Origin: an uncultured Gemmatimonadales bacterium
GTDB lineage: Bacteria > Gemmatimonadota > Gemmatimonadetes > Longimicrobiales > RSA9
NCBI GenBank assembly: GCA_963783305.1
Contig: CAWAMW010000016.1
Span: 739,491 to 803,490 of the forward strand
Length of the DNA stretch: 64,000 nt
Direction of reading: 5' to 3'
In this document: in pieces, positions 24,282 to 63,330 of the stretch
Layout: each line of letters starts with the position of its first letter
Numbering within the stretch: position 1 is the first letter of the stretch
Made by a program: the position numbers and the translations under genes
Notes under the pieces: model-generated
What the model saw: only the letters and a program-made list of their open reading frames with translations
What the model was told of the DNA's origin: nothing
The model's database searches: none

Positions 24282-24293
24282 GGAGGAGGACCC

Positions 24294-29985: not shown

Positions 29986-30007
29986 AGCGCGGGGGAGCGA
30001 GACCGAT

Positions 30008-31717
30008 ATGACAATGATCGTGGTGGATCCGGTTACCCGGATCGAAGGCCACCTGCGGGTGGACGTGGAAGCCGAGGACGGGTTCGTTAAGAACGCGTGG
30101 TCGAGCGGACAGATGTGGCGCGGGATCGAGCTGATCCTGAAGGACCGCGACCCGCGGGACGCGTGGGTGTTCACGCAGCGGATCTGCGGCGTGTGCACCA
30201 CGGTGCACGCCATCGCGAGCGTCCGGGCGGTGGAGGACGCGCTGAAGCTGGAGGTGCCGGCCAACGCGCAGTATATCCGCAACCTGATCCTGATCAGCCA
30301 CGCGCTGCACGACCACATCGTGCACTTCTACCACCTCTCCGCGCTGGACTGGGTGGACGTGGTGAGCGCGCTGGACGCGGATCCGCGCAAGGCGGCGGCG
30401 CTGGGCGCGAGCCTGAGCGAGTGGCCGGGGAACAGCGTGCAGGCGCTGACGGAGGTGAAGCAGAAGCTCCAGAAGCTGGTGCAGAGCGGTCAGCTCGGGA
30501 TCTTCGCCAACGGCTACTGGGGCCACAGCGCCATGCGGCTCCCGCCCGAGGCGAACCTGCTGGCGGCGGCGCACTACCTCCAGGCGCTGGAGTACCAGCG
30601 GAAGGCCACGCAGGCCACGGCGATCCTGGGCGCCAAGACGCCCCATATCCAGAACCTGGCCGTGGGCGGCGTGGCGAACCCCATCAACCTGGACAACCAG
30701 TCGGCGCTGAACATGGAGAAGCTGTACCGCTGGCTGGACCTCATGCGGGACGTGAACCAGTTCATCCGCCAGGCCTACCTGCCGGACGTGGCGGCGGTCG
30801 CCGCCCACTACCCGGAGTGGCTCGGCTACGGGGCCGGCGTGACCAACTACATGGCCGTGCCGGACCTCCCGCTGGACGCCGGTGCCACGAAGTTCGACCT
30901 GCCGGGCGGGATGGTGTCCGCCAACGGTGGACCCACCGGACGGCTGGACCGATGGAACGACAGCCGCTGGTCGGAGGGCGTGACAGAGACCGCGGCGCGG
31001 GCGTGGTACGAGAAGTCGCAACCGCTCCACCCGCACGTGGGCGAGACGAACCCCGCGTACACCGGCTTCGACCGCGACGCCGATTACAGCTGGGTCAAGG
31101 CGCCGCGCTTCGAGGGCGTCCCCATGCAGGTGGGCCCGCTGGCCCAGACGCTGGTGGGGCTGGAGCAGGGCCACCCGCTGTTCGTGAAGTACGGGACGCA
31201 GATGCTGGAGACCGCGGGGGGGCTGGCGGGGATGAAGCTCGGACCGGAAGTGCTGCACTCGACGCTGGGCCGCCACGCGGCCCGCGCCATCCGGGCGGGC
31301 GTCCTCACGGACCTGGTGGAGAAGCACTGGACGCTGCTGGCCGACAATATCGGCTCCGGCGATACGGAGACGTTCCGCGAGTGGGAGTACCCGAAGCACG
31401 AGGTGCGCGGCTATGGGGTCCACGAGGCGCCGCGCGGCGTGCTCAGCCACTGGGTCGTGATCGAGGACGAGAAGATCAAGAACTACCAGGCCGTGGTGCC
31501 ATCGACCTGGAACGCGGGCCCGCGCGACGAGGAAGGGCAGCTCGGCCCGTACGAGGCCAGCCTGGTGGGGAACCCCGTGGCCGACCCGGAGCGCCCGCTG
31601 GAGGTGATTCGCACCGTCCACTCGTTCGATCCGTGCCTGGCCTGCGCGATCCATACGCTGGATCCGGAGGGGCGGGAGCTGAGCGAGGTGCAGGCGGTGG
31701 GGTACTGCGCGACGTGA
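30008..31717 (+). CDS. hybC: [NiFe]-hydrogenase large subunit, copy 2
   Basis: DPVTRIEGH, QRICGVCTTVH, SFDPCLACAIH. Confidence 0.95.
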   Translation: MTMIVVDPVTRIEGHLRVDVEAEDGFVKNAWSSGQMWRGIELILKDRDPRDAWVFTQRICGVCTTVHAIASVRAVEDALKLEVPANAQYIRNLILISHALHDHIVHFYHLSALDWVDVVSALDADPRKAAALGASLSEWPGNSVQALTEVKQKLQKLVQSGQLGIFANGYWGHSAMRLPPEANLLAAAHYLQALEYQRKATQATAILGAKTPHIQNLAVGGVANPINLDNQSALNMEKLYRWLDLMRDVNQFIRQAYLPDVAAVAAHYPEWLGYGAGVTNYMAVPDLPLDAGATKFDLPGGMVSANGGPTGRLDRWNDSRWSEGVTETAARAWYEKSQPLHPHVGETNPAYTGFDRDADYSWVKAPRFEGVPMQVGPLAQTLVGLEQGHPLFVKYGTQMLETAGGLAGMKLGPEVLHSTLGRHAARAIRAGVLTDLVEKHWTLLADNIGSGDTETFREWEYPKHEVRGYGVHEAPRGVLSHWVVIEDEKIKNYQAVVPSTWNAGPRDEEGQLGPYEASLVGNPVADPERPLEVIRTVHSFDPCLACAIHTLDPEGRELSEVQAVGYCAT

Positions 31718-31793
31718 CAGGTTACAGAACACAGATTACAGAACACAGATTACAGAACACAGATTACAGAATACAGATTACAGAACACAGAAC
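31717..31793. repeat. AT-rich tandem repeat, 14-nt unit ACAGATTACAGAAC (heptamer-based), about 5.5 copies
   Basis: Starts at the hybC2 stop codon. Confidence 0.93.
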
Positions 31794-41186: not shown

Positions 41187-41575
41187 CGCGGGACAGATGG
41201 CTGTGAGGTGTCAGGCGTCAGGCGACACGGGGTGATGCTCCGGCCGCCGCCTCTCTTGCCGAACCGGCGAGGGCGTGGCAAGGTAGGGCGGGCTCCGTTC
41301 CCGCGGCGCCACGTTGATCAACCCCCTTCACGTGCCGCAGCGGAGGCCGGCCGTAGTGTACTTGTCGAGCTCACCACCCTGAATCAGAGCCGCCGCACGA
41401 TGAGGCGAATCCCTTTCCGGATAACCGAGTCCACCGCCCGGTTGAGTGAACCAGGATCGTGGGAGCTTCTCCGAAAGGCCGGTAACCGGACCGAAAGCGG
41501 TAATCGAGGCGGGAACACAAACGTTATCGGAAACGCGCCTTGAGCGAGACAATCACCAATCGGGCCGACGACACG

Positions 41576-42825: not shown

Positions 42826-44887
42826 ATGAAAACCCCCACCCTCGCCGCGATCCTCATCCTCGCCGCCGCCGCGACCCTCGCCGCGCAGGCCACCGGCCCG
42901 GCCGCGACCTTCCAGCCGGCGGACGTCTTCGGTCTGGAGGTGGGAGCGGACCCGCGGATCTCGCCGGACGGGGAGTGGGTGGTGTACGTGCGGACGGGGT
43001 TCGACGTGATGGAGGACGGGACGGTGTCGAACCTGTGGCTGGTGCCGTGGTCGGGGGGCGAGGGTCGTCCGTTGACGACGGGGTCGCAGCGGGACGGGTC
43101 GCCCCGGTGGTCGCCGGACGGGGGTCGGCTGGCGTACGTGTCGAACGAGGAGGACGGGAGCCAGGTCTGGCTGCGGTGGATGGACGGGAGCGGGGCGGTG
43201 GCGAAGCTGACGTCGCTGACGGAGTCGCCGGGTGGGCTGGCGTGGTCGCCGGACGGGCGGTGGCTGGCGTTCACGATGTTCGTGCCGGGGGAGGGCGCGG
43301 CGCTGGATGTGGACATGCCGCGGCGGCCGGAGGGCGCGGACTGGGGGCCGGCGTGGACGTACATCGACGCGCTGGACTACCGGTCGGACGGGAACCCGGG
43401 GTTCATCCGGGCGGGGCACCGGCAGCTGTTCGTGCTGCCGGCGGAGGGGGGGACGCCGCGGCAGGTGACCAGCGGGCCGTACGACCACGGCGCGCCGTCG
43501 TGGACGCCGGACGGCCGCGGGCTCGTCTTCTCCGCCAACCGCCACGACGACCGGGAGCGGATGCCGCGGAACACGGAGCTGTGGCGGGTGGACGTGGCGA
43601 CGGGCGCGCTGACGCAGCTCACCGACCGGTTCGGTCCGGACGGGAGCCCGGCGGTGTCGCCGGACGGCCGCCGCATCGCCTTCATCGGGTACGATGACGC
43701 GTTCCAGGGCTACCAGAATACTCGCCTCTACGTCATGGACGCGGATGGCACGAACCGCCGGGAGCTGGCGGCGTCGCTGGACCGGGGTCTGGGCGGCCCC
43801 GTGTGGAGCGCGGACGGCCGGGGCCTCTATATCGACTACGACAGCGAGGGGACGGGCCGGCTGGCGTACGTGGATGTGTCGAGTGGTGGGGTGAGGGAGC
43901 TGGCGGACCGGGTGGGCGGGCTGAGCCTGGGGCGGCCGTACGGCGGCGGGTCGTGGAGCGTGGCCCGGAACGGCCGGTTCGCGTTCACGCGGTCGTCGCC
44001 CGCGCGGCCGGCGGAGGTGGCGGTGGGCGAGCGTCGTCGCCCGGGGCAGGCCCGACTCGTCACAGCCCTCAACGCGGACCTGCTGGGCCACAAGACGCTG
44101 GGGCAGGTGGAGGAGCTGTGGTGGGAGTCGTCGTACGACGGTCGGCGGATCCAAGGCTGGGTCGTCACGCCGCCGGGGTTCGACGCGTCGCGGGAGTACC
44201 CGCTGATCCTGGAGATCCACGGCGGACCGTTCGCGAACTACGGGCCCCGCTTCGCCGCCGAGGTCCAGCTTTATGCGGCCGCCGGGTACGTGGTGCTGTA
44301 CACGAACCCGCGGGGGAGCACGTCGTACGGCGAGGAGTTCGGGAACCTGATCCACCACGCGTACCCGTCGCAGGACTACGACGACATGATGAGCGGCGTG
44401 GACGCGGTGATGGGGCGGGGGTACGTGGACCCGGCCCGGCTGTACGTGACGGGTGGGAGCGGCGGCGGCGTGCTCACGGCGTGGATCGTGGGGAGCACGG
44501 ACCGGTTCCGGGCGGCCGTGGTCCAGAAGCCGGTGATCAACTGGTCGAGCTTCGTGCTGCACGCCGACGCGCCGGCCACCTTCTGGCGCTACTGGTTCCC
44601 GGGCCCGCCGTGGGAGTACCCGGAGCACTACTGGGCCCGGTCGCCGCTGTCACGGGTGGGGAATGTTTCGACGCCCACCATGCTCATCAGCGGCGAGGCT
44701 GGACTACCGCACGCCCACGTCGGAGAGCGAGCAGTACTACGCGGCGCTGCAGATCCGGGAGGTGCCGAGCGCGCTTGTGCGGGTCCCGGACGCGTCGCAT
44801 GGGATCGCGAACAAGCCGAGCAACCTGATCGAGAAGGTGGCGTACGTGCTGGGGTGGTTCGGGAAGTGGGGCGGGGTGGCTCGCTGA
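42826..44887 (+). CDS. S9 family (acylaminoacyl/dipeptidyl) peptidase with 1-nt frameshift near 44698
   Basis: Signal peptide, WSPDG propeller repeats, IHGGP, GGSGGG nucleophile; catalytic D (DYRTP) and H (ASHG) lie in the shifted frame. Confidence 0.9.
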
Positions 44888-45082
44888 CGCTCGCAGGGTG
44901 GCTCGCTGGCGCTCGCAGGGTGGCTCGCTGATGCTCGCAGGGTGGCTCGCTGACGCTCGCAGGGTGGCTCGCTGACGCTCGCAGGGTGGCTCGCTGACGC
45001 TCGCAGGGTGGCTCGCTGGCGCTCGCAGGGTGGCTCGCTGATGCTCGCAGGGTGGCTCGCTGGCGCTCGCAGGGTGGCTCGG
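44874..45082. repeat. Tandem repeat, 22-nt unit GGGTGGCTCGCTGACGCTCGCA, 9.5 copies
   Basis: 22-nt period with GAC/GGC/GAT variants. Confidence 0.95.
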
Positions 45083-45481
45083 CTGCACGGGACATATTCC
45101 GGCGGACTCCCAATCAATCCCGGAGGCAGGATTGTTTGGGGCCTCGACCGGGTTGGGCGTGGGTGAGAGGCGGAATCCCGAGGTGAGCGGAGCGCAGCAG
45201 ACCCCGGCTCACAGGTGTGTCTCGGTACCGGATCGAGCGGAAACGACCGCGGGCCGCGCCGGGGGTCTGGCTGCGCGGCGGCCGGGTGGTCGGGGAAGTC
45301 TGCGCATGGGAAGTGGTACAGCGGGCGCCCGGCTGGCGGCAAGAGGCTCGCGGCGAGGCCGCTGCGGCAAATTGTGTCATCCCAGGGGGTTTGTCAGGCG
45401 ATGAGGGCCGCGGTATGTTGCCGCAGCCCCCCGCGCGGCGCGATCGCCGCTGCCACACCCTTGCGAAACGGACGGTACCCT

Positions 45482-48364
45482 ATGCGGGCTGGCCCGACAC
45501 GACGGCTGCATCCGACCTCGCGGTTCTTCGCGACCCTCCTTGCCCTTCTCATCGTTCTCACGCTGATGCCCGGCGCCACCGCGCCGGGCGCGGCCCAGGA
45601 GCCGGCGACGGCTCCGCTGGGGTCGGCCGCGGCCCAGGGGTCGGTCCCGCTGGACACGGCGGTGGTGACGGGGACGCTGGACAACGGGCTGCGCTACTTC
45701 ATCCGGGGGAACCGCCGGCCTGAAGCGCGGGCGGAGCTGCGGCTGGTGGTGAATGCGGGGTCGGTGCTGGAGGACGAGTCGCAGCGGGGGCTGGCGCACT
45801 TCGTGGAGCACATGGCGTTCAACGGGACGCGGAACTTCGCGAAGCAGGAGCTGGTGGACTACCTGGAGTCGATCGGGATGCGGTTCGGCCCGGACCTGAA
45901 CGCGTACACGTCGTTCGACGAGACGGTGTACATGCTTACGGTGCCGACGGACAGCGCGGGTCTGCTGGAGCGAGGGCTCGGGATCCTGGAGGACTGGGCG
46001 TGGGGTCAGACGTTCGACCCGGACGAGGTGGAGAAGGAGCGCGGGGTGGTGGTGGAGGAGTGGCGTCTGGGGCGTGGGGCGCAGGCGCGGATGATGGACG
46101 AGCAGCTGCCGGTGCTGTTCCACGGGTCGCGCTACGCGGAGCGGCTGCCCATCGGGGAGCGGGAGGTGCTGGACAGTTTCGACGTGGAGACACTGGAGCG
46201 GTTCTACCGGGACTGGTACCGCCCGGACGTTATGGCGGTGGTGGCGGTGGGCGACTTCGACACGGCGCGGGTCGAGGCGCTGGTGCGGGAGCGGTTCAGC
46301 GGGATCCCCACGCCGGCGCGGCCACGGCCGCGGCCGGAGTACGGGCTGCCGTCCCACGAGGAGACGCTGTTCGCCATCGCCACGGACCCGGAGGCGACGG
46401 GGTCGCAGGTGGCGCTGTACCACAAGCTGCCGCCGCTCCGCACGGGGACGGTGGACGCGTATCGTGAGCGGGTGGTGGAGCGGCTGTTCCTGGGGATGCT
46501 CAACGAACGGCTGCGGGAGCTGACGCAGCAGGCGGACCCGCCGTTCCTGGGGGCGGGGTCGGGGAAGGGCTCGTTCGTGGGCGGCGCGGAGATCCACACG
46601 CTGTCGGCGAGCGTGCCGGATGGCGGGATCGTGCGGGGCCTGGACGCGCTGCTGACGGAAGCGGAGCGGGTGGCGCGTCACGGGTTCACATCGGGTGAGC
46701 TGGAGCGGCAGAAGACCGTGGTCCTGCGGCGGCTGGAGCAGGCGTTCGCGGAGCGGGAGAAGACGGAGTCGAGACGGCTCGCGGGGGAGTACATCCAGCA
46801 CTTCCTCCGCGGCGAGCCCGCGCCGGGCATCGCATACGACTACGCGTTCCACCAGCGGGTGCTGCCGGGCGTGACGCTGGCGGAGGTGGACGCGCTGGCG
46901 GCGTCCTGGATCAAGGACCACAGCCGGGTGGTGCTGGTGAGCGCGCCGGAGAAGGCGGACGTCCCCGTCCCGGACGAGGCGGAGCTGCGAGCGGCCATGC
47001 GGGCGGCGCTGGACCGGCCGGTGCTGGCGTTCGAGGACGAGGTGGTGGACGAGCCGCTCGTCGCCCGGATCCCGGAGCCGACGGCCATCGTGAGCGAGTC
47101 GGAGATCCCGGAGCTCGGGATCACGGAGTGGGAGCTGGCGAACGGCGTGCGCGTCGTGCTCAAGCCCACGGACTTCCAGGACGACCAGGTCCTGCTCGGC
47201 GCGCTGAGTCCCGGCGGGGGCGGCCGTGTCTCCGACGACGAGTACCTCTCTGCCATGATGGCGGCCCCGGTGGCGTCCATGAGCGGCTTCGGCCCGTTCA
47301 GCATGACGGAGCTCCAGAAGAAGCTGGCGGGGAAGGCGGTGATGGTCTCGCCGTGGATCAGCGAGGGCGAGGAGGGGTTCCAGGGCCAGGCCTCGCCCAG
47401 CGACCTGGAGACCCTGTTCCAGCTGGTGTACCTCGAGTTCACCGCGCCCCGCGTCGACAGCGCCGCGTTCCAGTCGCTGAAGAGCCGGTACTCGGCCATC
47501 CTGACCAACCGGGGCGCGAGCCCGGAGGCGGTCTTCACCGACACCATCAGCGTAACCATGGCCGACTACCACCCGCGGGCCCGGCCGCTGTCGCCGGAGC
47601 TCCTGGACGAGCTGGACCTGGGCGTCGCCATGGCCACGTACCGGGACCGGTTCGCGGATGCCAGCGACTTCACGTTCGTGCTCCTGGGCAGCTTCGACAT
47701 TGCCGGCGTACGGCCGCTGGTCCAGCGGTACCTGGGCGGCCTGCCCTCCACCGGTCGGGTGGAGGAGCGCGCCTGGGTCGACATGGACCCGCCCCCCGGC
47801 GTGATCGAGAAGACGGTCCGGAAGGGGACGGAGCCGAAGGCCTCCGCCCACATCCGCTACACCGGCCCCGCCGAGTACAGCGATGCCGCCGCGGAGACCA
47901 TGAGCCTCATGGTGGAGGTGCTGCGGATCCGGCTCCGGGACGTGCTGCGGGAGGACATGGGCGGGACGTACGGCGTGCAGATCCGCGGCAGCCTCGAGCG
48001 GGGTCCCGACGAGGAGTACGACGTCGGCATCCAGTTCGGCACCGACCCCGACCGCGTCGAGGAGCTGACCGCCGCCGTGGCCACCGAGCTCGAGCGGCTC
48101 CGGGCCGACGGGCCCACGCCCGACGAGATGCAGAAGGTGCGGGAGATCCGCCGGCGCGCGATGGAGGTGAACCGCGAGCGCAACGAGTACTGGCTCAGCC
48201 AGCTCTACGAACGCTACCGCTTCGACGAGGACCCGCGGTCGATCCTCGAGGAGGGGGAGCGCGTGGACGCGGTGACGGCCGCGGACGTGCGGGAGGCGGC
48301 GCGGCGGTATCTCGGGGAGGATCGGGTGGCGCGGTTCTTTTTGTATCCGGAGGTGGCTCGCTGA
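45482..48364 (+). CDS. M16 family zinc protease (PqqL-like), secreted
   Basis: GLAHFVEHMAF (HxxEH), NAYTSFDETVY, LREDMGGTYG. Confidence 0.94.
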   Translation: MRAGPTRRLHPTSRFFATLLALLIVLTLMPGATAPGAAQEPATAPLGSAAAQGSVPLDTAVVTGTLDNGLRYFIRGNRRPEARAELRLVVNAGSVLEDESQRGLAHFVEHMAFNGTRNFAKQELVDYLESIGMRFGPDLNAYTSFDETVYMLTVPTDSAGLLERGLGILEDWAWGQTFDPDEVEKERGVVVEEWRLGRGAQARMMDEQLPVLFHGSRYAERLPIGEREVLDSFDVETLERFYRDWYRPDVMAVVAVGDFDTARVEALVRERFSGIPTPARPRPRPEYGLPSHEETLFAIATDPEATGSQVALYHKLPPLRTGTVDAYRERVVERLFLGMLNERLRELTQQADPPFLGAGSGKGSFVGGAEIHTLSASVPDGGIVRGLDALLTEAERVARHGFTSGELERQKTVVLRRLEQAFAEREKTESRRLAGEYIQHFLRGEPAPGIAYDYAFHQRVLPGVTLAEVDALAASWIKDHSRVVLVSAPEKADVPVPDEAELRAAMRAALDRPVLAFEDEVVDEPLVARIPEPTAIVSESEIPELGITEWELANGVRVVLKPTDFQDDQVLLGALSPGGGGRVSDDEYLSAMMAAPVASMSGFGPFSMTELQKKLAGKAVMVSPWISEGEEGFQGQASPSDLETLFQLVYLEFTAPRVDSAAFQSLKSRYSAILTNRGASPEAVFTDTISVTMADYHPRARPLSPELLDELDLGVAMATYRDRFADASDFTFVLLGSFDIAGVRPLVQRYLGGLPSTGRVEERAWVDMDPPPGVIEKTVRKGTEPKASAHIRYTGPAEYSDAAAETMSLMVEVLRIRLRDVLREDMGGTYGVQIRGSLERGPDEEYDVGIQFGTDPDRVEELTAAVATELERLRADGPTPDEMQKVREIRRRAMEVNRERNEYWLSQLYERYRFDEDPRSILEEGERVDAVTAADVREAARRYLGEDRVARFFLYPEVAR

Positions 48365-48509
48365 CGCTCGCAGGGTGGCTCGCTGACGCTCGCAGGGTGG
48401 CTCGCTGACGCTCGCAGGGTGGCTCGCTGACGCTCGCAGGGTGGCTCGCTGACGCTCGCAGGGTGGCTCGCTGACGCTCGCAGGGTGGCTCGGCCCGTGG
48501 CCTCGCAGG
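48351..48509. repeat. Tandem repeat, same 22-nt unit, 6 copies plus degenerate tail
   Basis: Same unit as 44874..45082. Confidence 0.95.
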
Positions 48510-48612
48510 GCTCGGCTGCGCTCGCGTGTAGTTCTACCGAATGGGAATATAGCTGACAATGTTTCAGGGATCTCCCCACTGACAGGCGTGGTCTGGGGGG
48601 CGAGGGTTGAGG

Positions 48613-50179: not shown

Positions 50180-50285
50180 GTTGCGGTGCCGGGCGCCGGG
50201 CGACAACGTTTCGATCGAGACCCGTGGCCGCGGCGGCTTTTCGACCCCCTTCTCGCGCCGCAGCGGGTTCGCCGTGTTGAGCATC
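50180..50285. repeat. Dispersed ~100-bp hairpin repeat, copy 1
   Basis: Core AGACCCGTGGCCGCGGCGGC-N-ACCCCCTTCTCGCGCC-N-CGGGTT shared with copies at 55283 and 63220. Confidence 0.88.
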
Positions 50286-53076: not shown

Positions 53077-54099
53077 ATGTTCACCCGCTGCACCGCCTGC
53101 CACGCCCGCCTAGGTACCAACGACGTCCTGGAGCCGTTCCCCGTGGGACGACGACTCGCGTTCGACGCCGCCACCGGCCGGCTCTGGGTCCTCTGCACCG
53201 CCTGCCGCGCTTGGAACCTCGCCCCGATCGAGGAGCGCTGGGAGGCCGTGGAGACGGCCGAGCGGCTGTTCGAGGGCGCTGTCGTCGGGGCGTCGACGGA
53301 GAACGTGGCGCTGGGTCGCCTGCGCGATGGGACGGAGCTGGTGCGCGTGGGCCGGGTGGAGCGGCCGGAGCTCGCGGCGTGGCGCTACGGGAAGCGGCTC
53401 CTGCGACGGTTCTGGGGGAACCAGGTGGTGGGCGGGGTGCAGGGCGGGATCATCGGCGCCGCCGGGTTCACCGCGCTGGGGCCTCTTGGAGCCATGGCGG
53501 TGTTCGGCGCCGCGGCGGTGACTGTCCTGGCCGTGCGGGACCGGCGGCCGTTGACCCGGACCGACGACGGAGTCGTCGTCCGGCGCGGCGATGCCACGGG
53601 CGCCCTCATGCTGCCGAGCGACAGCGTCCACGGCTGGCTCCTCGAGATGCCCCGCCGGGGTCAGGACCCCATCGTCGTGGAAGGCTCCGAGGCCGTCCGC
53701 ATTCTGCGTCGCATTCTGCCGCGGGTCACCGCCGGCAAGGCACGCCCCCGGGTGATACGGAACGCCGTATCGGAGGTGGAGCGGCTGGGCACGCCGGAGC
53801 GGGTGCTGCGGGAGGCCGCCACCGACCTGGGCGACATGGACAACATGGACCAGGTCGACGCGTGGTCCCGGCTCCACGCCCGCCCCCACCGCATCGCCAC
53901 CGGCCACCCCACCCTCTGCCTCGCCCTCGAGATCGCCGCCAACGAGGAGACGGAGCGGCGCGCGCTGGACGGCGAGCTGGGGCTCATCGAGCGCGAGTGG
54001 CGCGAGGCGCAGGAGCTGGCGCGGATCACCGACGACCTGCTGATGCCGACCGCCATCGCCGCACGGCTCCGCGAACTGCGGGGGGCGGTTGACACCTGA
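53077..54099 (+). CDS. Hypothetical protein with N-terminal CxxC..CxxC zinc-finger-like region and a central TM segment
   Basis: CTAC..CTAC; coding-like GC3 pattern. Confidence 0.8.
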   Translation: MFTRCTACHARLGTNDVLEPFPVGRRLAFDAATGRLWVLCTACRAWNLAPIEERWEAVETAERLFEGAVVGASTENVALGRLRDGTELVRVGRVERPELAAWRYGKRLLRRFWGNQVVGGVQGGIIGAAGFTALGPLGAMAVFGAAAVTVLAVRDRRPLTRTDDGVVVRRGDATGALMLPSDSVHGWLLEMPRRGQDPIVVEGSEAVRILRRILPRVTAGKARPRVIRNAVSEVERLGTPERVLREAATDLGDMDNMDQVDAWSRLHARPHRIATGHPTLCLALEIAANEETERRALDGELGLIEREWREAQELARITDDLLMPTAIAARLRELRGAVDT

Positions 54100-54106
54100 C
54101 TCTACG

Positions 54107-54144
54107 AAAAAAGGACCCGCCCCCCCGATAAGAGGGGCGGGTCC
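54107..54144 (-). terminator. Intrinsic terminator (U-tract on the minus strand, possibly bidirectional)
   Basis: GGACCCGCCCC/GGGGCGGGTCC stem preceded by A6. Confidence 0.75.
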
Positions 54145-54290
54145 AGGGAGGATCGCATTCACTGTTCAAATGCCCGATCCCAGTGTCGATCGGACTGGAG
54201 CTCCTTGAGGGGATGATACCCGAGGAAGGATCGGCAGTTCAAGGACGGCATCGGTTTCGTGGAGCGAAAGGCCTGGGTTTGCGGGCGCCG

Positions 54291-54465
54291 GATATACAAG
54301 CGGTTGGCGTCGACGTGTGCCGGATCACTGTTCCGTCTGATCCGGCATCGCAGGAGGGAGTAATCGTCGAACGGGACCGGTAAGCTTGTGAGGTGCTGGT
54401 GGTTTTGAAGATGGTGGCGCACTGTTGGGATTGGCGCGGCGGGTCGCCAGCCTCGAACGTTAGCT
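54291..54465 (+). repeat. attC-like site A (divergent)
   Basis: TACAAGCGGTTGGCG ... CGCCAGCCTCGAACGTTAGCT; 3' half aligns with sites B-F. Confidence 0.65.
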
Positions 54466-54468
54466 GAC

Positions 54469-54924
54469 ATGCTCGAGAAGGGAGTCGTGTGGCTGATGGA
54501 AACAGAGATTCGCAGGGGACGTCGTCAGTTTCAGGCTGTCATGGTTGCAGCCCTGGCTGTCGTCGTGGTGCCATCCTTCATGGTAGTCATTTACACCGGT
54601 GAGTGGATTGGGTTAGGCGGTCAGGTGATTTTCGTTGGCCTGGCAGGTGCTCTCGTCTACACTGGTGCGAAATGGGCACGGTGGGGGCTTGCCCTGTGGT
54701 TCGGGCTCATGGGGCTCATCGTCCTGCTGGCCGGGTTCGTCGCCGCGGGTCTGAGCCTTCGACCGTCGATCAGAGATGTGGCTCCGCACATTCTGCTGGG
54801 TGTGCTGTATGAAATATTCGCGATGATCTTCGCGCTGTCATTCGGGATCGATGGGTGGCTGGATTTTCGGGGGCAGCGGGCTCGAGAACTGGCCAATGGA
54901 GGCCCAGAGTCGCACATCAGCTAG
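54469..54924 (+). CDS. Cassette-encoded membrane protein
   Basis: About 4 TM helices; starts 3 nt after R' GTTAGCT; stop lies inside CAGCTAGC (R''-like). Confidence 0.78.
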
Positions 54925-54974
54925 CAACCGGTCGGCGCCTCGGAGAACCCGCCGCGGCCGTGCAGAGCTGGTGA
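54918..54974 (+). repeat. attC-like site A2, 5' half only, internally deleted
   Basis: CAGCTAGCAACCGGTCGGCGCCT..CGGAGAACCCGCCGCGGCCG..GAGCTGGTGA. Confidence 0.7.
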
Positions 54975-54989
54975 TGGCGCAGATCTTCC

Positions 54990-55282
54990 TGGTCGTGGGC
55001 CCAGAGGCCGGCGTAGCAGTCGGCCTGGAGCTCCATGCGGACGGAGGCGCTGCCGGGCCCGCTCTCCTGGTAGCCGCTGAAGCTCTCCATGGCGCCCGTG
55101 AGGTGCTGGACATGATGGCCGACCTCGTGGGCGATGACGTAGGCTTGGGCGAAGTCGCCGGCGGCGCCGTAGCGGTCGGGGAGCTGCCGAAAGAACCCGA
55201 GGTCGATGTAGACCTGGGCGTCCCGGGGGCAGTAGAAGGGCCCGACGGCGGAGTTGGCGGTGCCGCAGGCGGAGGCGAGCGA
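54990..55282 (-). pseudogene. Internal fragment of neutral zinc metallopeptidase (YpfJ/Zn_peptidase family)
   Basis: [39 protein letters not shown]; both termini missing. Confidence 0.85.
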
Positions 55283-55385
55283 CTTGCGACGACGTGAGCC
55301 GCGTGACACGTTTTCCAGACCCGTGGCCGCGGCGGCTTTCAACCCCCTTCTCGCGCCCCAACGGGTTCGCCTTGATGCATTCTAG
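55283..55385. repeat. Dispersed ~100-bp hairpin repeat, copy 2
   Basis: Begins CTTGCGACGA; same core as copies 1 and 3. Confidence 0.88.
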
Positions 55386-55691
55386 CGAACTCAGCTTCGG
55401 CAATGCTACCGCCGAAGGCAGCATCACGAACTGGGTTTCGCTAATCCAGTAGTTATGCTGCCATGCGCACGTGGAGACCTCAGATGCGATGGGACTTGAT
55501 GCGGCAGGTGCCATGCTCGGGCGATCGGATCGGCTGACGTCGAGATGCTGATGCGCTTGCGGCACTGGTTCGTGCAGTCTGACGCGAGCTGCAGGTCTGT
55601 CGAGGTCATCGGATGCTCGCGAAGCGGACTGGTCGATGCGACGAACGGCTGGAGAGCATCGGCTGGACGGTCGTGGCACTGGGCGCACTGC

Positions 55692-55843
55692 GGATAACAA
55701 ACGGTTGGCGCCTGCGCTCGCCTGCGCGCCGCTCCGGAGAACCCGCCGCGGCCGTCTGGAAGCTGGAGAGGTCGTGGAGTTTCGAAGGCGGTCGCGCGCT
55801 GGAGGTTTCGGCGCGGCGGGTCGCCAACCTGGAAACGTTAACC
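55692..55843 (+). repeat. attC-like site B
   Basis: R'' GGATAAC, L'' GGTTGGCG, L' CGCCAACC, R' GTTAACC. Confidence 0.88.
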
Positions 55844-56032
55844 GCCATGTCCGCACAGGAAGACTGCTGGGTTGCTTCGCCAGGTCGATCGCAGCTGGCT
55901 GGCCGTGGGACGCAGCTGAGTTCGGCTGCGAGCGCGTAGCGGAAGTTCGTGATGAGCGGCTGTTCGAGAGCAGACGGCTGGAGGCCGCGAGTCTAGTGCT
56001 CGAGAGGTCGGCAGAGGCCGGGCGCGCACAGC

Positions 56033-56182
56033 GGCTAACAAACGGTTGGCGCCTGCGCTGCCTTCGGTCGCTCCGGAGAACCCGCCGCGGCCGTCTGGAG
56101 CTGGTGAGGGTCGTGAAGTTTCGAAGGCGGTCGGCGCGCTGGAGGTCGGCGCGGCCGGGTCGCCAACCTGGAAACGTTAAGC
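56033..56182 (+). repeat. attC-like site C
   Basis: GGCTAAC-AAAC-GGTTGGCG ... CGCCAACC-TGGAAAC-GTTAAGC. Confidence 0.9.
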
Positions 56183-56205
56183 GCCACCGCCGGAGAGGAG
56201 TCGCG

Positions 56206-56820
56206 ATGGTACGCGGTATGGTCATGGTGTTTTTGGCGGGCCTGCTTGCATCCTGCGGATCTGGCTCTTCGACGGATCAGGAGCCGGAGGCGGAGTCTTC
56301 TAGCATTTCCGATGAAGTTCCGGGGCTCGCGTTCCAGAAGGTGGCTTGGACTGTCCTAGGAGAGGTTCAGCGCGGGAGCTCCGAGACAGTTCCTCTGGGA
56401 GTGCTCGACGTTACTCGTCGCCAAGTTTGTGCACCGGGATCATCCCCTTGCCGAATGGTCTCTGAGGAACTCCCAATTCCTCAGCGGGCTCGCGAAGCAG
56501 TGGCGGAACACGGTCAACCCGTCCGATTCGTGAGCGTTGCAAATGGCGTGTGTCCGGACGCGGTGTGGCTGGGCTTTGCCGCGGCACGGGTACTAGGACG
56601 GGATTCCTTTGCCGTGACCATTGACTTAGTTGATACCCGGCAACCGTACCCTCGAATGGAACTAGGTCGGGAGTACATGCTGGTGTGTGAGGAGCGGTAT
56701 TGTGCCGTCGCCTCCATTCGGCCTGGGGAAGAACCGGATGTGGAACTGAAGTACGCATCCGAAGCAGAGTGTGAATTCGAGAACGCCGCGGAAGAGCCAT
56801 CGCTGGACGGCGGCGCTTAA
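56206..56820 (+). CDS. Cassette-encoded lipoprotein
   Basis: GAGGAG RBS, LASC lipobox, stop TAA inside R'' GCTTAAC. Confidence 0.82.
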   Translation: MVRGMVMVFLAGLLASCGSGSSTDQEPEAESSSISDEVPGLAFQKVAWTVLGEVQRGSSETVPLGVLDVTRRQVCAPGSSPCRMVSEELPIPQRAREAVAEHGQPVRFVSVANGVCPDAVWLGFAAARVLGRDSFAVTIDLVDTRQPYPRMELGREYMLVCEERYCAVASIRPGEEPDVELKYASEAECEFENAAEEPSLDGGA

Positions 56821-56966
56821 CAAACGGTTGGCGCCTGCGCGGCCTGCGGCCGCTCCGGAGAACCCGCCGCGGCCGTCTTGGAGCTGGTGAGAGAGTCGTG
56901 AGTTTCGAAGGCGGTCGCGCGCTGGAGGTTTCGGCGCGGCGGGTCGCCAACCTGGAAACGTTAAAT
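56815..56966 (+). repeat. attC-like site D
   Basis: GCTTAAC ... GTTAAAT with the same L boxes. Confidence 0.9.
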
Positions 56967-57025
56967 GCCATCACGTAGCGTGTTTCCAGGCGTTAGATTG
57001 GTGGCAGCTTAACGGGAGGATCTGA

Positions 57026-57232
57026 ATGAAGTATCGGGTGCTGGTAGAGCAGGACGAGGACGGATTCTTCGCGGCGGAGGTTCCGGCGCTGCCCGGGTGT
57101 GTCAGCCAGGGCGCGACGCGGCAGGAGGCGCTCGAGAACATCAGGGAGGCGATCGCCGGGTACCTTGAGAGCCTGGATGATCACCAGGAGCCGGTGCCGC
57201 CCTCGATCCACGAAGAGATCGTCGAGGTATAA
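57026..57232 (+). CDS. hicB: HicB family antitoxin (short form)
   Basis: YRVLVEQDEDG.F.AEVPALPGCVSQGATRQEALENIREAI. Confidence 0.92.
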   Translation: MKYRVLVEQDEDGFFAAEVPALPGCVSQGATRQEALENIREAIAGYLESLDDHQEPVPPSIHEEIVEV

Positions 57233-57456
57233 TGGCGGAGCTGCCAGTCGTCTCAGGACGCGAGGCAGTGAAGGCGTTCGGTAAGCTCGGGTATCGAGTC
57301 GACCGTCAACGTGGAAGTCACATCATTCTGAGACAGGCGGAACCCCCTCATCGCCGCCTGACAATTCCAGACCACAAAGAAGTTCGAAAAGGGACGCTGC
57401 GCGCGTTGATTCGTCAGGCTGGCCTGACGGTCGACGAGTTCGTGGCTCTCTTGTAG
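57232..57456 (+). CDS. hicA: HicA family mRNA interferase toxin
   Basis: RQRGSHIIL..TIPDHKEVRKGTLRALIRQAGL. Confidence 0.92.
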   Translation: MAELPVVSGREAVKAFGKLGYRVDRQRGSHIILRQAEPPHRRLTIPDHKEVRKGTLRALIRQAGLTVDEFVALL

Positions 57457-57518
57457 GGCCGGGGAACAGCCCGTTCGAGACAGGTCTTGATGCTGGACGG
57501 GCGTGACGGCAGTTAACA

Positions 57519-57949
57519 CGTATGAGGCCCCGGGCGTCAAGGGTGCGCACGAGTACGAGGCCGTTGCGAGGCAACGGAGCAGCTTTGAGATCGGCCGGTG
57601 ACCCTGACTTGGTTTCGACTCTTGGCTGCAGATTAGGCTCTGCACCAAACACGTATTGAGGCTCGAGGCCTAGAAATTCATTCTGACCCTCGCATCCGGC
57701 CTATTCAAAGGAGACGGGCTCGCCATGAGGCGTCCAGTTATCTCCGGGCTCGGGGGAGGGGCAGAGCCTGCAAGCCGAGCATCTATGTAGATGAGCGAGA
57801 AGGGTGTCCAATCAAACGGCCGCGGTGCCGGACGTGTGGTGCCCATGGAGCCGGGTTCAGGTGCTTCGAGCACATTGGTTACGAACTCCCATGAGGGCTC
57901 TGTCTTTGGCGGCTCGAGTTATACGCCGGGCTCACCCTCCTCACTCTGC
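57519..57949 (-). ncRNA. Candidate bridge/seek RNA region in the IS right end
   Basis: ~430-bp ORF-poor end containing copies of both junction sequences and a duplicated motif; RNA expression is inferred. Confidence 0.6.
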
Positions 57950-58993
57950 TCAGTTCGGAAAGAAGCGATCCATATCGAACGCTCGCTTTTGCTTGAGCAT
58001 GAAGTAGTTGGCGCGGCCGAGCTTGGCGGCCAGGATGCTGAGCGCTTTGCCTTTGCCATAGCGCCGCCGCAGCCGCTTGATGTGCTGCTTCCCGCTCGGG
58101 TTGTTGTGGAGGAAGCAGACGGCCGCCTCGGAGTAGGCCCATTTGAGATGGGCGTTTCCGATCTTCGCGCCGGAGGTGCCCAGGCGTTTGCCGGCGGATT
58201 CCTTGGGTGCTTTCACGAGTCGAGCGTACGAGCTGAAGTTCTGGACTCGCGGAAATCGTTCAATGGTGTGGATCTCATAGAGGATCGTGAGCCCCAGGAT
58301 TCGGCCGATGCCGGGGGTGGTCTGGAGCACGTGGAGTGAATGGGCGTTGTGCCGACTGGCCTGGCGCTGCACCGTCTTCTCGAGTTCCTTGATCACCGTG
58401 TCGTACGTAGTGCAGAGCTGGAGGTCGGCTTGAACGGTGTGGCGGACGATCGGGTCCTTGAATTGGGCTGGGATCGCTTCGCGGCTCTTCTTCGTAAGGA
58501 GCGTTCCCTTCGGGGCCGGCAGGTTGTATTGGTGGAAGGTGTTGCGGACGTGCGAGAGCATCTCGCTCCGCTTCCGAGTGAAGTAGAGTCGGCGGCGAAG
58601 CAGGTCGCGAGTCGCGCGCATTGCAGGCGGATACACATAGGCCTGCGGGATGACGCCACCTCGGAGCAGGACCACGAGCTTCTCGGAGTCGATGCGGTCG
58701 TTCTTGGTCTTGGCGCCGTGGATCGCTTTCAGGTAGAGGGCGTGAGCCAGGACGAAGGCAATCCCGTGCTCAGCACAGAGATCGGCGAGCCAATACCAAC
58801 AGAAGATGCATTCGGCACAGACGACCAGATCCTCCATGTACGGCCGAACGGCCTGCAGAAATTCTTCGGGTGTGCAGTCCGCCCGCTCGTGGAGCAGGAT
58901 GGTGCCCTGGTGGTCGGTGACGCACAGGTACATGGTCCGGGCGTGGAGGTCGACGCCGCAGTAGTAGCGGTGGGAGCCGCGGTAGAAGCGCAT
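57950..58993 (-). CDS. IS110 family DEDD transposase/recombinase
   Basis: CGVDLH, AEC, KTKNDRID (DEDD); TPGIG, ESAGK (candidate catalytic Ser), KIGN..LKWA; CAGGAGG RBS. Confidence 0.95.
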   Translation of the reverse strand: MRFYRGSHRYYCGVDLHARTMYLCVTDHQGTILLHERADCTPEEFLQAVRPYMEDLVVCAECIFCWYWLADLCAEHGIAFVLAHALYLKAIHGAKTKNDRIDSEKLVVLLRGGVIPQAYVYPPAMRATRDLLRRRLYFTRKRSEMLSHVRNTFHQYNLPAPKGTLLTKKSREAIPAQFKDPIVRHTVQADLQLCTTYDTVIKELEKTVQRQASRHNAHSLHVLQTTPGIGRILGLTILYEIHTIERFPRVQNFSSYARLVKAPKESAGKRLGTSGAKIGNAHLKWAYSEAAVCFLHNNPSGKQHIKRLRRRYGKGKALSILAAKLGRANYFMLKQKRAFDMDRFFPN

Positions 58994-59087
58994 GAGGTCC
59001 CCTCCTGGGGTGAGTGGATGCTTTGGTTGGCACCTGACATCCTGCCTGCCCCGTTGGGACAGGTCCAGGAGGGGCCTCGATGAGTAT

Positions 59088-59232
59088 CAAACGGTTGGCG
59101 CCTCCGCGTCCTGCGGCCGCTCCGGAGAACCCGCCGCGGCCGTCTGGGACCTGGTGAGGTTCGTGAAGTTTCGAAGGCAGCCGCGCGCTGGAGGTATCGG
59201 CGCGTCGGGTCGCCAACCTGGGAACGTTATGT
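59088..59232 (+). repeat. attC-like site E, main body (its R'' lies at 57511..57517, on the other side of the IS)
   Basis: CAAACGGTTGGCG ... CGCCAACCTGGGAACGTTATGT. Confidence 0.88.
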
Positions 59233-59284
59233 GCCACCCGCTCGCGGGGCTGGCAATCGTCCACAGATAAGATGAAGGGGGCGC

Positions 59285-59599
59285 GTGATAGAACCGGTTG
59301 CGGTTATCGGGGCGGGTTCGTTGGCGGTCGCGATCTGGCTGGCCTGGGGTGGGGTCCGGTGGTTGAGGGTTGCGAGCCAGGGCAGTTGGCAGTGCAACGG
59401 CTTTCGCGTCGACCCCCGGCACGCGTATCAAAGGAGTGCCATAAAGGGCTTCGGCGCTGTGGCCGTACTCGGTTGCGCTGTGGCCTTCGCATTGGGGGCC
59501 CACGTGTTGTGGGCCATCGCTGGGCCACCGGTCATCATCCTGGACGTCTTCTTAGCTGAGCGGGTCTGGTATCGTCTCTTGCAGAAGCGGCCCGTGTAG
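59285..59599 (+). CDS. Cassette-encoded small membrane protein
   Basis: GTG start after GAAGGGGG; about 3 hydrophobic segments. Confidence 0.65.
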   Translation: MIEPVAVIGAGSLAVAIWLAWGGVRWLRVASQGSWQCNGFRVDPRHAYQRSAIKGFGAVAVLGCAVAFALGAHVLWAIAGPPVIILDVFLAERVWYRLLQKRPV

Positions 59600-59675
59600 C
59601 TGTCGCCGCCCGGGATGCTCCCCCAGGAGCGAACACTCTAGTTCATACACGTGGCGCTCTCATGGGGCGGGCAGC

Positions 59676-59825
59676 ACATATCAAACGGTTGGCGCCTGCG
59701 CGGCCTGCGGCCGCTCCGGAGAACCCGTCGCGGCCGCCTGGGAGCTGGTGAAGTCGTGAGGGTTCGAGGGCGGTCGCGCGCTTGACTTATCGGCGCGGCG
59801 GGTCGCCAGCCTGGAAACGTTGAGC
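59676..59825 (+). repeat. attC-like site F
   Basis: ACATATC-AAAC-GGTTGGCG ... CGCCAGCC-TGGAAAC-GTTGAGC. Confidence 0.87.
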
Positions 59826-59839
59826 GCCATTCTTTGGAA

Positions 59840-60238
59840 ATGAGAACTGTCCTAGGATTCGCGATCGTGGTGATCGGAGCTAATGCGTGTGGAGCGCACC
59901 AGCGCGAGCACGATAATGCCACGGTGGTAGGAGGCCACTACGTCTGGGGGGCGGAAGTGAATGTCTTCAGTCCGTGCGGTTCTGACCTTGAATACTGGGT
60001 CGAGGCTGAGCCGCCGGTCCTCCGTGCCCTCCGCGAACAGTACACTGCGTTTGGGCTTCCGCCGTACCAGGTCGTCTTCGTAGCGGTGCGCGGGGAGATT
60101 GGGCCGGTGTTGGACTGCGGCTTCTGTGTTGAGTATGACGGCAGCTTCAAGGTGGAGGAACTGGTCGAAATGGACTCGCCGGGCCCCGGGAAGTGCGAGA
60201 CCGAGATCGGTGGTACACTCAGGGAGAACGGCGCTTAA
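59840..60238 (+). CDS. Cassette-encoded putative lipoprotein
   Basis: Signal ending NAC; stop inside R'' GCTTAAC. Confidence 0.75.
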   Translation: MRTVLGFAIVVIGANACGAHQREHDNATVVGGHYVWGAEVNVFSPCGSDLEYWVEAEPPVLRALREQYTAFGLPPYQVVFVAVRGEIGPVLDCGFCVEYDGSFKVEELVEMDSPGPGKCETEIGGTLRENGA

Positions 60239-60380
60239 CAACTGGCTGGCGTCTGCGCGGCCTGCGGCCGCTCCGGAGCAACCGGTCGGCTTACGTGGCG
60301 GCGCCAGGAGAGGTGTTGCTGTTCAGGATCTCTGGGGCGATGTAGAAGCGGCGGCCCGTTCGCCAGCTTTGAACGTAGGC
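60233..60380 (+). repeat. attC-like site G (divergent; R' degenerate, GTAGGC)
   Basis: GCTTAACAACTGGCTGGCG..GCCTGCGGCCGCTCCGGAG ... CGCCAGC-TTTGAAC-GTAGGC. Confidence 0.75.
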
Positions 60381-60452
60381 GCCCTAACGTGAATGTTGAA
60401 TCGGGAGATGCTGCAATGGAGGCGTCTGCAGAAGGGGATGCCCCTGTCTGCA

Positions 60453-61167
60453 TCACCCATGGGCCGCTTCGATGATCTCGCGGGTCTTGTCAGCCGAGAC
60501 GTGGCCGCGAGAAACCTTCTTGATGAGCCGCCGGACCGTCCGCGGAGAAGCGGTCGCCAGGTCTTGCGGGAGCGGCCAGCGCCGGAGGATCGCCAGCGGC
60601 GTCCGCTTCTCGATGGACGAGAAAGCACCCAGCAGCTCGGGCCAGCCGAGATCGAGCATGCCCTGGAGTCGGTTTTTGTACCGCGTCGCCTCGACCGTGA
60701 GCCGGTGGCGCTGCATGATCAGGAGCTTGAGCCGCGCCAGATCATCGCTCAGGAAGGGGAAGGGAACGAACCGACCTTCACCCGTGAGGCGCGAGATCAG
60801 CGCGGCGTCGATCTGGTCGGACTTGTTCGGGCTGTTGTCGTCGAGCTCCTTCGCCTTCTTCGTGTGCGCAGGGAGCACGCTCACGATCCTCATGGCCGAG
60901 CTCCCGCAGGAAGTTGGCGTAGGTGAAGCCGTGATGGCCCGCGAACTCGAGCCCGATCAGGAATCCATCGGGCGGGACGTCGGGGAACTGGGCATAGAGG
61001 CGCTCCAGCGACCGCTCGAAGCTCCCCCGAGCCACCTGGACTGTGATGGGATCGGCGGCCACACCGTCGGGCCCACGGGCCACCATGACGTGGTGCTTCT
61101 TGCCGGTGTCGACGCCGACGTGGACGGGGAACGTGCGGGCGTACACCAGCTTCTCGTCCGGTCTCAT
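60453..61167 (-). pseudogene. Second IS110-family transposase, frameshifted (~60889) and C-terminally truncated
   Basis: VGVDTGK, GLEFAG, NKSDQIDA (DEDD); AAGGAGG RBS; C-terminal domain absent. Confidence 0.85.
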
Positions 61168-61407
61168 GAGGCACCTCCTTCGCTGAGGCGCCCGTGAACG
61201 TGTCCGCGGTGCTGGCATGCCCGGTCGGGCCACCGGTGAGGGCGCCGGTCCCACGACCGTATCGGTCTATAGGCGGACAGCCAACCCGTGGACTCCGGAA
61301 GTGAACCCGCTTTCGGACCGGAAGCCCAGCGGGAGCGGGGTCGGCCGGAGCCGCGTAGATTGCGACGGGTGAGCTTGAATGGGAGGGGCCTCCGTAGAGG
61401 CCGGCGA

Positions 61408-61475
61408 GCCTAACACGCGTGTACGGATGTCTGGCGCCTGCGCGGCCTGCGGCCGCTCCGGAGAACCCGCCGCGG
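61408..61475 (+). repeat. attC-like site H, 5' part only
   Basis: TGGCGCCTGCGCGGCCTGCGGCCGCTCCGGAGAACCCGCCGCGG identical to site D; GCCTAAC upstream. Confidence 0.75.
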
Positions 61476-61653
61476 ACCGAAGGAGTCCCGTGCAAGTTCA
61501 GGGTCTTCGAGGAGTTCAAGAAGAACACCACGTCGGGCGCCCACTTAGTCTCGGACTGGCGTCACCTGAAGAAGCGCACCGGTCGCTCCGGAAGGAGCTC
61601 TAAAACGGCAAGGCCGCGGTGAAGGCGCGCCGGGCCGGCCAGGGGGTGAGGAC

Positions 61654-62271
61654 ATGACCGTCATGGAGATCACCATCGAGCCGGCGACGGCGGCCCGGCA
61701 CGATGCCACCGAGTCGCTGACCCGCGACGCGTTCTGGGACCTGTACCGGCCCGGCTGCGTCGAGCACCTGATCCTGCACCGGCTGCGGCGGAGCGGCAGC
61801 CACGTCCCCGCGCTGGACCTGGTGGCCGTAGCCGGCGGGCGGGTCGTCGGGCACCTCATCGCCACCCGGGCCGCGGTCCGGGACGCGGCCAGCGGGGACG
61901 AGGAGGTCCTGTGCGTCGGGCCGGTCTCGGCGGCGCCGTCGCTCCAGCGGCGTGGCGTGGGGAGCGCGCTCATGGAGCGGTGCATCGCGGAGGCGCGTCG
62001 TCTGGGCCACCGCGGCATGATCCTGTTCGGCGACCCCGCGTACTACCACCGCTTCGGGTTCCGCAACGCCGCGGCGTACGGGATCACCACGAAGACCGGC
62101 GATAACATGGAGCCGTTCATGGCCCTCGAGCTGCGCCCCGGCGCCCTGGCGGACGTCACGGGGCGCTTCTACGAGGACGACGCCTTCGAGGTGGACGACG
62201 ACGCCGTCGCCGGCTTCGACGCGCGCTTCCCCCGCAGGGAGAAGGGGGAGGCGAAGCGGCCGATCGGGTAG
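61654..62271 (+). CDS. GNAT family N-acetyltransferase (YhbS-like)
   Basis: PGCVEHLILHRLR, GPVSAAPSLQRRGVG, GDPAYYHRFGF. Confidence 0.9.
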   Translation: MTVMEITIEPATAARHDATESLTRDAFWDLYRPGCVEHLILHRLRRSGSHVPALDLVAVAGGRVVGHLIATRAAVRDAASGDEEVLCVGPVSAAPSLQRRGVGSALMERCIAEARRLGHRGMILFGDPAYYHRFGFRNAAAYGITTKTGDNMEPFMALELRPGALADVTGRFYEDDAFEVDDDAVAGFDARFPRREKGEAKRPIG

Positions 62272-63219: not shown

Positions 63220-63330
63220 CTTGCGACGAACGGCTCCGCGCGGCACGTTTCTGCCAGACCCGTGGCCGCGGCGGCGTTCAACCCCCTTCTCGCGCCGCAG
63301 CGGGTTTGCTCTGATGCACTTCAGGGAGCT
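63220..63330. repeat. Dispersed ~100-bp hairpin repeat, copy 3
   Basis: Begins CTTGCGACGA; same core as copies 1 and 2. Confidence 0.88.

Follow-up and report, generated by a model that had tools for sequence, protein, structure and literature searches.

A 64,000-nucleotide stretch of the genome of an uncultured Gemmatimonadales bacterium (contig CAWAMW010000016.1, positions 739,491 to 803,490; the whole stretch is called the window below) carries integron-type gene cassettes, and the attC recombination site that closes one of them, a hicBA toxin-antitoxin cassette, is interrupted by an insertion sequence (IS) of the IS110 superfamily. The locus raises the question whether this element belongs to a lineage that seeks attC sites and, if so, how such sites are recognized. 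An interpretation made from the letters of the window (the sequence-only reading) had pointed to the IS1111-attC subgroup and proposed an attC-specific recombinase, in a lineage with its own attC family, that would also lock the cassette in place. The element is very probably an ISGsu4/ISMahy12-like IS inserted at the edge between the R'' box and the spacer of attC, likely by way of a circle with a promoter and of a guide RNA with two loops, one for attC and one for the element's own ends. Its boundaries, core, repeats and intact gene were read directly, most homologues occupy the same position, and guide-like segments covary with both target and donor.

An IS110-superfamily element inside an attC site

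The split site, the element and the cassette that precedes it consist of the following features.

56960..57517, plus strand: hicBA gene cassette; opens at 56960 with the R' GTT that belongs to site D and closes at 57517 with its own R''
57026-57232 and 57232-57456: hicB (PF15919) and hicA (PF07927), cargo of the split-attC cassette, by Pfam matches
57511..57517, plus strand: R'' box of the split attC, complementary to the cassette start
57517..57518, plus strand: junction at the right end of the element, with the CA core (TG when read on the element's strand)
57519..59087, minus strand: body of the IS110-superfamily element, 1569 bp or, with one core counted, 1571; runs antisense to the cassettes
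57524..57531, plus strand: right subterminal inverted repeat GAGGCCCC, 8 bp, 5 nt from the core
57950..58993, minus strand (open reading frame 58993-57950): intact DEDD recombinase (transposase) gene, 347 aa, PF01548 and PF02371
59071..59078, plus strand: left subterminal inverted repeat GGGGCCTC, 8 bp, 9 nt from the core
59088..59089, plus strand: CA core, left-end junction of the element
59090..59232, plus strand: rest of the split attC, with spacer, L'', central region, L' and R' (at 59226)

The cassette ends with GGCAGTTAAC at 57508-57517, which is complementary to the cassette start at 56960 in 9/10 positions. In silico excision of 57517-59087 yields repeat-family sequence as in site D, just as the sequence-only reading had it for removal of the element with one CA. 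Its coordinates for the R'' end, the cores and the repeats were likewise recovered, and joining the ends in silico gave the circle junction that it had predicted. The restored 16-mer context with TAAC occurs 34 times in 8/73 genomes of the host family and a reversed control pattern does not occur at all (0), which excludes a match of the insertion site by chance. The element is present as a single copy in the 4.35-Mb host genome, in which no further copies were found, and a close homologue was found in only 1/60 relatives. CA/TG stands at both junctions of the element and of 38 distinct complete homologues (the core being part of the pattern used to find ends). Recombination at a short core without variable target duplication is characteristic of the IS110 superfamily, and the earlier claim of a 2-bp core and no true duplication stands.

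The recombinase scores 190 bits against NF033542 (cut-off 140). It combines a DEDD RuvC-like domain with a Transposase_20 domain that holds the catalytic serine, as in the IS110 superfamily, and its catalytic residues are, by motif position, D15, E61, D99, D102 and S266. The earlier description of an intact DEDD transposase is thus borne out. In a quick tree the closest transposases come from Gemmatimonadota records. Non-coding sequence is unevenly distributed within the element, with 430 nt downstream of the transposase gene (tnp) vs 94 nt upstream.

The interrupted repeat has the layout of attC. R''/R' and L''/L' boxes close single-gene cassettes with complementary ends, and site D gives a bottom-strand fold in which R and L boxes are present; the L'-R' spacer is unusually long in this attC family (about 8 nt vs 5 on the other arm). 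The family has 26 nhmmer matches on four contigs of the host, and another contig (G000:C15:290500-302500; L171) has an array of 13 sites of this 150-nt attC family, headed by a tyrosine recombinase on the same strand. One point weighs against a straightforward integron assignment: this recombinase reaches 201 bits vs the TIGR02249 cut-off of 265 and has an extra N-terminal region, and the sites are therefore attC by anatomy, not by a typed IntI. No tyrosine recombinase or integrase was found on the element's own contig.

attC targeting across the clade

Homologues were collected in two sets. The first comprises 87 loci, including 80 from genomes and 6 from plasmids, and the second 81 (80 from metagenomes and one relative); the proteins are 48-72% identical and come from more than 10 phyla by record title (bins may be contaminated). 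Left ends were detected in 74/87 and 73/81 loci and right ends in 53/87 and 36/81, with patterns that contain no bases outside the element. The left-end core is TG in 73/74 elements with a detected left end, by a pattern that admitted only TG or GG. On the other side, the TG core is followed by TT in 49/50 distinct right flanks of the first set and 31/35 of the second; in these tallies the right ends of L084 and L167, which are duplicated-end artefacts, were entered as misses, and L170 repeats an element of the first set. The longer TTA, which corresponds to the GTTRRRY box of the attC bottom strand, follows the core in 37/50 distinct right flanks of the first set.

Left flanks carry the signature of L'', with A at position -7 in 54/66 and 60/64. 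An attC-type fold, for which the left flank had to pair with an upstream AAC in a hairpin with at least 8 L-box pairs, was obtained for 43/66 and 43/59 left flanks. Controls gave 14-25%: 35/250 random TGTT sites of the host genome, 10-11/66 shifted flanks of the first set and 15/59 of the second. An earlier attC score that demanded R''/R' complementarity beyond AAC/GTT had found 20/38 vs about 10% in controls; since R' is part of the following cassette, the fold test was used instead. Targeting of attC is therefore a property of the whole clade and not only of the copy in the window, as the proposal of an attC-specific recombinase implied. On the attC top strand only TAA[CA] is constant in the target, and the next five bases vary. 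The sequence-only reading had asked whether all copies lie at TAA-CA-AAC; this holds for TAA[CA] and fails for the five bases after the core, which change with the host attC family and follow the putative RNA guide described below, a feature absent from that reading.

Several observations weigh against so general a statement. Ends went undetected in 13 (left) and 34 (right) of the 87 loci and in 8 and 45 of the 81, and the end-finding patterns were composed after the first set had been inspected. The hairpin test, a crude one, was failed by about 30% of left flanks, of which some are decayed sites and some seem off-target; insertions such as L017, L040 and L085 lie outside attC. The more distant relative L087 (2300-4000; 31% identical) has a similar end layout and is, by eye, not in attC; attC targeting therefore does not span the whole wider clade.

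Other IS110 transposase genes or second copies occur within a few kilobases in the left flanks of L025, L047, L081 and L101, and also at L028 and L082, so arrays often carry several such elements.

A predicted two-loop guide RNA in the right end

The long right end of the element contains, after the stop codon and on the element strand, two similar modules, each with a 5' segment ending in TAAC and a 3' segment containing TG. We read them as the loops of a putative guide RNA with the following parts.

57600..57949, minus strand: predicted bridge/seek RNA region inside the 430-nt right non-coding end
57918..57927, minus strand: putative loop 1 5' guide, ending in TAAC, matches attC R''
57811..57819, minus strand: putative loop 1 3' guide, with target arm CCGTT, TG core and handshake AT; 9/9 identical to junction 59086-59094
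57737..57740, minus strand: putative loop 2 5' guide TAAC, which fits the target arm in full and the donor arm with one mismatch
57648..57656, minus strand: putative loop 2 3' guide, with donor arm ATACG, TG core and handshake TT; 9/9 identical to junction 57515-57523

By arithmetic, the chance of each 9/9 junction copy in 430 nt is about 0.002. The loop 1 3' guide matches target positions -1 to -5 in 177/275 cases in the first set (shuffled 112 +/- 9) and in 190/280 in the second (shuffled 123 +/- 7), and neither set gave a guide-target signal at positions -6 to -10. The loop 1 5' segment agrees with the base before TAAC of R'' in 33/44 and 23/29 elements (18.6 and 14.3 when shuffled). For loop 2, the 3' guide equals the donor end at five positions (17/17 and 54/55 cells in the two sets), and it follows the element's own right end at the position that takes all four bases (17/17; 10/11). 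As shuffles ignore kinship, the tests were rerun on tree-independent pairs, with 30:6 and 9 ties for the target 3' guide (p 3e-5), 10:2 and 10 ties for the R'' guide (p 0.02) and 7:0 and 1 tie for the donor guide (p 0.008).

The bases that follow the guides agree with this arrangement. TT follows the donor guide in 78/79 matches among 86 elements, and AT follows the target guide in 28/32 matches located without use of those bases. The AT of loop 1 matches the donor arm and the TT of loop 2 the target arm; both are invariant, so they match without covariation. The outer stem of loop 1 has a variable and self-complementary sequence: cognate arms pair better than the mean of 20 foreign arms in 117/119 modules, and better than all 20 in 79/119. 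By covariation, loop 1 has guides for both target strands, as expected of a bridge RNA. In loop 2 the 3' guide matches the donor arm and the 5' guide carries a fixed mismatch without clear covariation.

Does the guide, rather than the protein, find the site? The folded bottom strand or the L'' box could be recognized by the protein, with guide-like segments of secondary importance, since target positions -7 to -12 (the L'' box) are conserved beyond the guide, with the frequent A at -7 noted above, and guides mismatch about 1/3 of positions. We consider this unlikely: guide and target covary in independent pairs, conservation of L'' is expected of any attC, and the guide-defined 10-mer is by itself confined to attC sites in the host, with 12 occurrences in the genome of which 12/12 lie in attC-family sites. 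Base pairing alone could therefore give attC specificity, and the hairpin may act as a helper in target recognition.

The right end could also consist of two target-type loops, that is, a duplicated seekRNA, with the element's ends read by the protein via the subterminal repeats. In favor of this reading, the two loops are built in one frame and have an identical 5' guide, TAAC, that agrees with the target arm and has a mismatch to the donor arm; moreover, both strands of the inserted element's right junction are matched by loop 2. We give such a duplication little credence, as the loop 2 3' guide follows the donor end including the four-base position and in all independent pairs with a preference, and closes with the handshake bases that a donor loop should carry; the 5' segment of loop 2 showed no covariation with the target (p 0.11-0.22). 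A pairing of that 5' segment with the donor arm through a one-base bulge was also tried; it reached p 0.008 in the first set and p 0.08 in the second and was rejected.

The preferred reading of loop 1 as target loop and loop 2 as donor loop has points against it as well. The inner stem test was weak (75/119), the fold of the whole right end of the element is no better than that of shuffled sequences (z -0.71), and forcing all four guides to be unpaired costs 8 kcal/mol. Roughly a third of target-guide positions mismatch the occupied site. The extended R'' guide of the element fits its own occupied site at only 7/10 positions; one host site on C15 has the 10-mer of this loop 1 5' guide as its R''. 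The TAAC of loop 2 mismatches the donor arm in 36/37 and 28/29 pairs. No Rfam family reached its gathering score in 54000-62000.

In one homologue (L003:4000-4150) the last 143 nt of the element are duplicated in tandem. The duplicated piece begins precisely with the TG of the donor-guide copy, which might mean that this internal copy was used for recombination; an assembly artefact may also explain it.

By analogy with IS621 and with ISEc11/ISKpn4, we infer a circle, a promoter, the RNA, its pairing and the chemistry of exchange as the parts of a mechanism, for which the element's ends provide two further predicted features.

57535..57540, minus strand: predicted circle-junction promoter, -35 box TTGACG; circularization would bring it to 17 nt from the -10 box
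59083..59088, minus strand: -10 box GATACT of the predicted circle-junction promoter

When ends are joined, the -35/-10 spacing is 17-18 nt in 66/66 distinct junctions; the pattern used to find ends included the -35 motif. The element would form a circle whose joined ends create a promoter that drives tnp and the RNA downstream of it. Loop 1 would then pair with the R''/spacer edge of attC and loop 2 with the circle junction, and the top strands would be exchanged beside the core with the aid of the handshake bases, which would pair with the partner DNA after strand exchange and so push insertion forward. The fixed TAAC guide would read the invariant R'' box of attC, and the five variable guide bases would be retuned to the attC spacer of each host. 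The donor arm TAT differs from the TAA of R'' by one base, so that one TAAC guide could serve both loops.

Known systems and consequences for the integron

RNA-guided recombination and attC targeting by IS1111-family elements are already in print, and seekRNA has been demonstrated for ISKpn4 and ISPst6 (PMC11187229); neither the attC habit nor the RNA-guided mechanism is therefore new as such, and the ISGsu4-like clade appears to be a separate lineage. The sequence-only reading had pointed to the IS1111-attC subgroup, whose published members are ISPst6, ISKpn4, ISPa21, ISPa25 and ISUnCu1. The element shares with this group an attC target near its 5' end with insertion antisense to the cassettes (PMC3001079), subterminal repeats and a long non-coding right end, and, as predicted from sequence, a junction promoter and a top-strand guide 5' of the bottom-strand guide. 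It differs in that its right end of about 430 nt holds a predicted second loop that matches the donor. Ordinary membership of the group is nonetheless highly improbable and fails on both transposase and insertion position; the known members have a transposase of another type. ISUnCu1, whose sequence was taken from the plasmid described in PMC10232235, aligns with the recombinase over only 140 aa (22% identity), and a quick tree separates the two (Shimodaira-Hasegawa-like approximate likelihood ratio test, SH-aLRT, 100), so that no monophyly with the ISPst6/ISKpn4/ISPa21 transposases was recovered, in a tree with long branches and ISUnCu1 as its one group member. None of the best 40 plasmid matches is named as a group member, and ISGsu4 is 17-18% identical to ISPst6, ISKpn4 and ISPa21 (source data of PMC11187229). 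The insertion point of ISKpn4, ISPst6 and ISPa25, as given in Table 1 of PMC13604230, is five bases off the present core, at the spacer/L'' edge, and so are the ISUnCu1 junctions, which we read in L088.

The wider IS1111 family is resembled only in part. Its subterminal inverted repeats of at least 7 bp (8 bp here) and its long non-coding region downstream of tnp are present; its transposase motif GL-P----S(T)G is absent, the corresponding stretch reading RLVKAPKESAG, and the recombinase is 20-22% identical to the IS1111-type proteins in L081 and L088. As far as can be judged from sequence, the architecture is thus IS1111-like (PMC11187229) and the transposase motif is not.

Similar to ISGsu4 and ISMahy12, the recombinase starts with MRFY...G[IV]DLHAR and shares motifs along its whole length, by eye against supplement file 6 of PMC11187229. 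ISGsu4 is listed there, in the source data, under the IS110 family, and a supplement table of PMC11208160 places ISGsu4, ISGsu5, ISShfr7 and ISShwo5 in one cluster. In the same supplement, file 3 has the ISGsu4 cluster in its tree and file 5 contains unlabeled attC-like target strings. The literature searched, in which the original IS1111-attC papers figured as cited by others and which did not extend to ISfinder, nowhere describes ISGsu4-like elements as residents of attC or reports an RNA of theirs; a survey of Shewanella integrons observed no IS in attC (PMC9229058).

With IS621 the element shares a predicted design of two internal loops, a 2-bp core covered by the putative 3' guide, handshake bases and a DEDD plus serine recombinase (PMC11208160; PMC11208158), and, read on the attC top strand, the same order of a target loop and then a donor loop, with each 3' guide ending in two handshake bases. 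In contrast to IS621, where the RNA lies in the left end, it is predicted here in the right end, and, with respect to the element, the DNA would be read the other way round. The 8-bp subterminal repeats and the attC target are further differences; the target of IS621 is of the repetitive extragenic palindromic (REP) type. Group IIC-attC introns, too, go into the bottom strand of attC in antisense orientation, within the R'' box at TTGT/T (PMC7923331), one to three bases from the present core. They differ in their retroelement chemistry, their need for a folded bottom strand and their unrelated protein.

If these assignments are correct, a few bases at the R''/spacer edge of attC would be a hot spot reached independently by group IIC introns, IS1111-attC elements and the present lineage. 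IS1111-type elements have been described with a single target-seeking RNA (PMC11187229), and IS621 with a target and a donor loop (PMC11208160). An element of IS1111-like architecture with, to judge by its sequence, a clear donor-matching loop and handshake bases would bear on this one-RNA vs two-loop question, and the clade would supply hundreds of natural guide/target pairs. For integrons, such insertions could be a common way, reversible or permanent, of fusing neighboring cassettes.

A permanent trace of this kind may be present next to the element.

59675..59683, plus strand: next attC, with ATC instead of AAC in R'' (T at 59681), the same as the element's left junction; possible footprint

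The T at 59681 is the base that the donor arm would deliver. In the host-family genomes the context has 36 matches in 8/73 genomes, of which 34 read TAAC and the other two are the element's junction and the site at 59681. The donor base was also present in two right junctions (L099, L134), and the target base in one left junction (L019). In IS621, bottom-strand cuts place the handshake positions within the exchanged segment, according to PMC11208158; such a cleavage geometry would predict occasional fixation of the wrong base at exactly the position where donor and R'' differ. The TAT-CA at 59681 thus hints, weakly, at an earlier insertion; a degenerate site at 54920, with G at that position, speaks against it. 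For another IS110 element, copy-out with the original copy retained and top-strand insertion have been reported (10.1101/2025.10.25.684509), which would account for the fidelity of junctions and not for excision scars. On present evidence we regard as a tentative possibility, somewhat below even, the full picture of a large, multi-phylum IS110 lineage that came to target attC independently of the IS1111-attC group through a complete right-end bridge RNA with handshake logic as in IS621, with a donor arm that mimics R'' so that one TAAC guide serves both loops, five retuned bases and an occasional attC-killing TAT-CA footprint (59681; L099, L134).

What the insertion means for the hicBA cassette is a further question. 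With R'' and L'' 1.57 kb apart, attC folding should be stopped and excision there blocked, so that hicBA could leave only together with its neighbors; the same lock has been proposed for ISPa21 (PMC11616780). The hicBA cassette has a homologue in a different genus of the same bacterial family, and in the attC of that cassette the same TG core is taken by another, truncated IS110 (33% identical, other subterminal repeats; L172:1430-2400; G032:C1). That the insertion was retained, or aimed, because it locks a toxin-antitoxin cassette is nevertheless improbable. We scanned open reading frames of 55-260 aa within about 800 bp; left flanks were included only where a locus had both sides (37 loci). 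Toxin-antitoxin Pfam matches were present in the split cassette at 8/59 loci, and the 37 loci with both flanks had 4 on the split side vs 6 on the opposite side (7 with a DUF4160 match). The missing tyrosine recombinase on the element's contig points the same way. As a trait of the clade the lock is largely refuted, since occupied sites are not enriched in such cassettes; as a local side effect it is plausible, and to that extent the sequence-only reading holds.

The window contains further mobile and repeated sequences. Where the array ends, beside a half attC at about 61412, there is a second IS110 of another clade (60453-61254, minus strand); it is frameshifted and truncated, matches PF01548 only, and over 164 nt its DNA is 71% identical to an IS110 on C6. 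Another type of repeat (AACCCCCTT...CGCGCC) is present in copies that, together with inverted fragments of the attC central region, occur at 54950-55400, 63240-63330, 50239-50279 and 41316-41356, and one of them is fused to what we take to be a piece of a neutral-zinc-metallopeptidase-like reading frame. Long intergenic tandem arrays with units of 24, 23, 14 and 22 nt are located at 8085-8372, 19158-19364, 31703-31791, 44809-45149 and 48286-48560, and 21060-31503 is a tandem duplication of about 5.7 kb with 71-83% identity.

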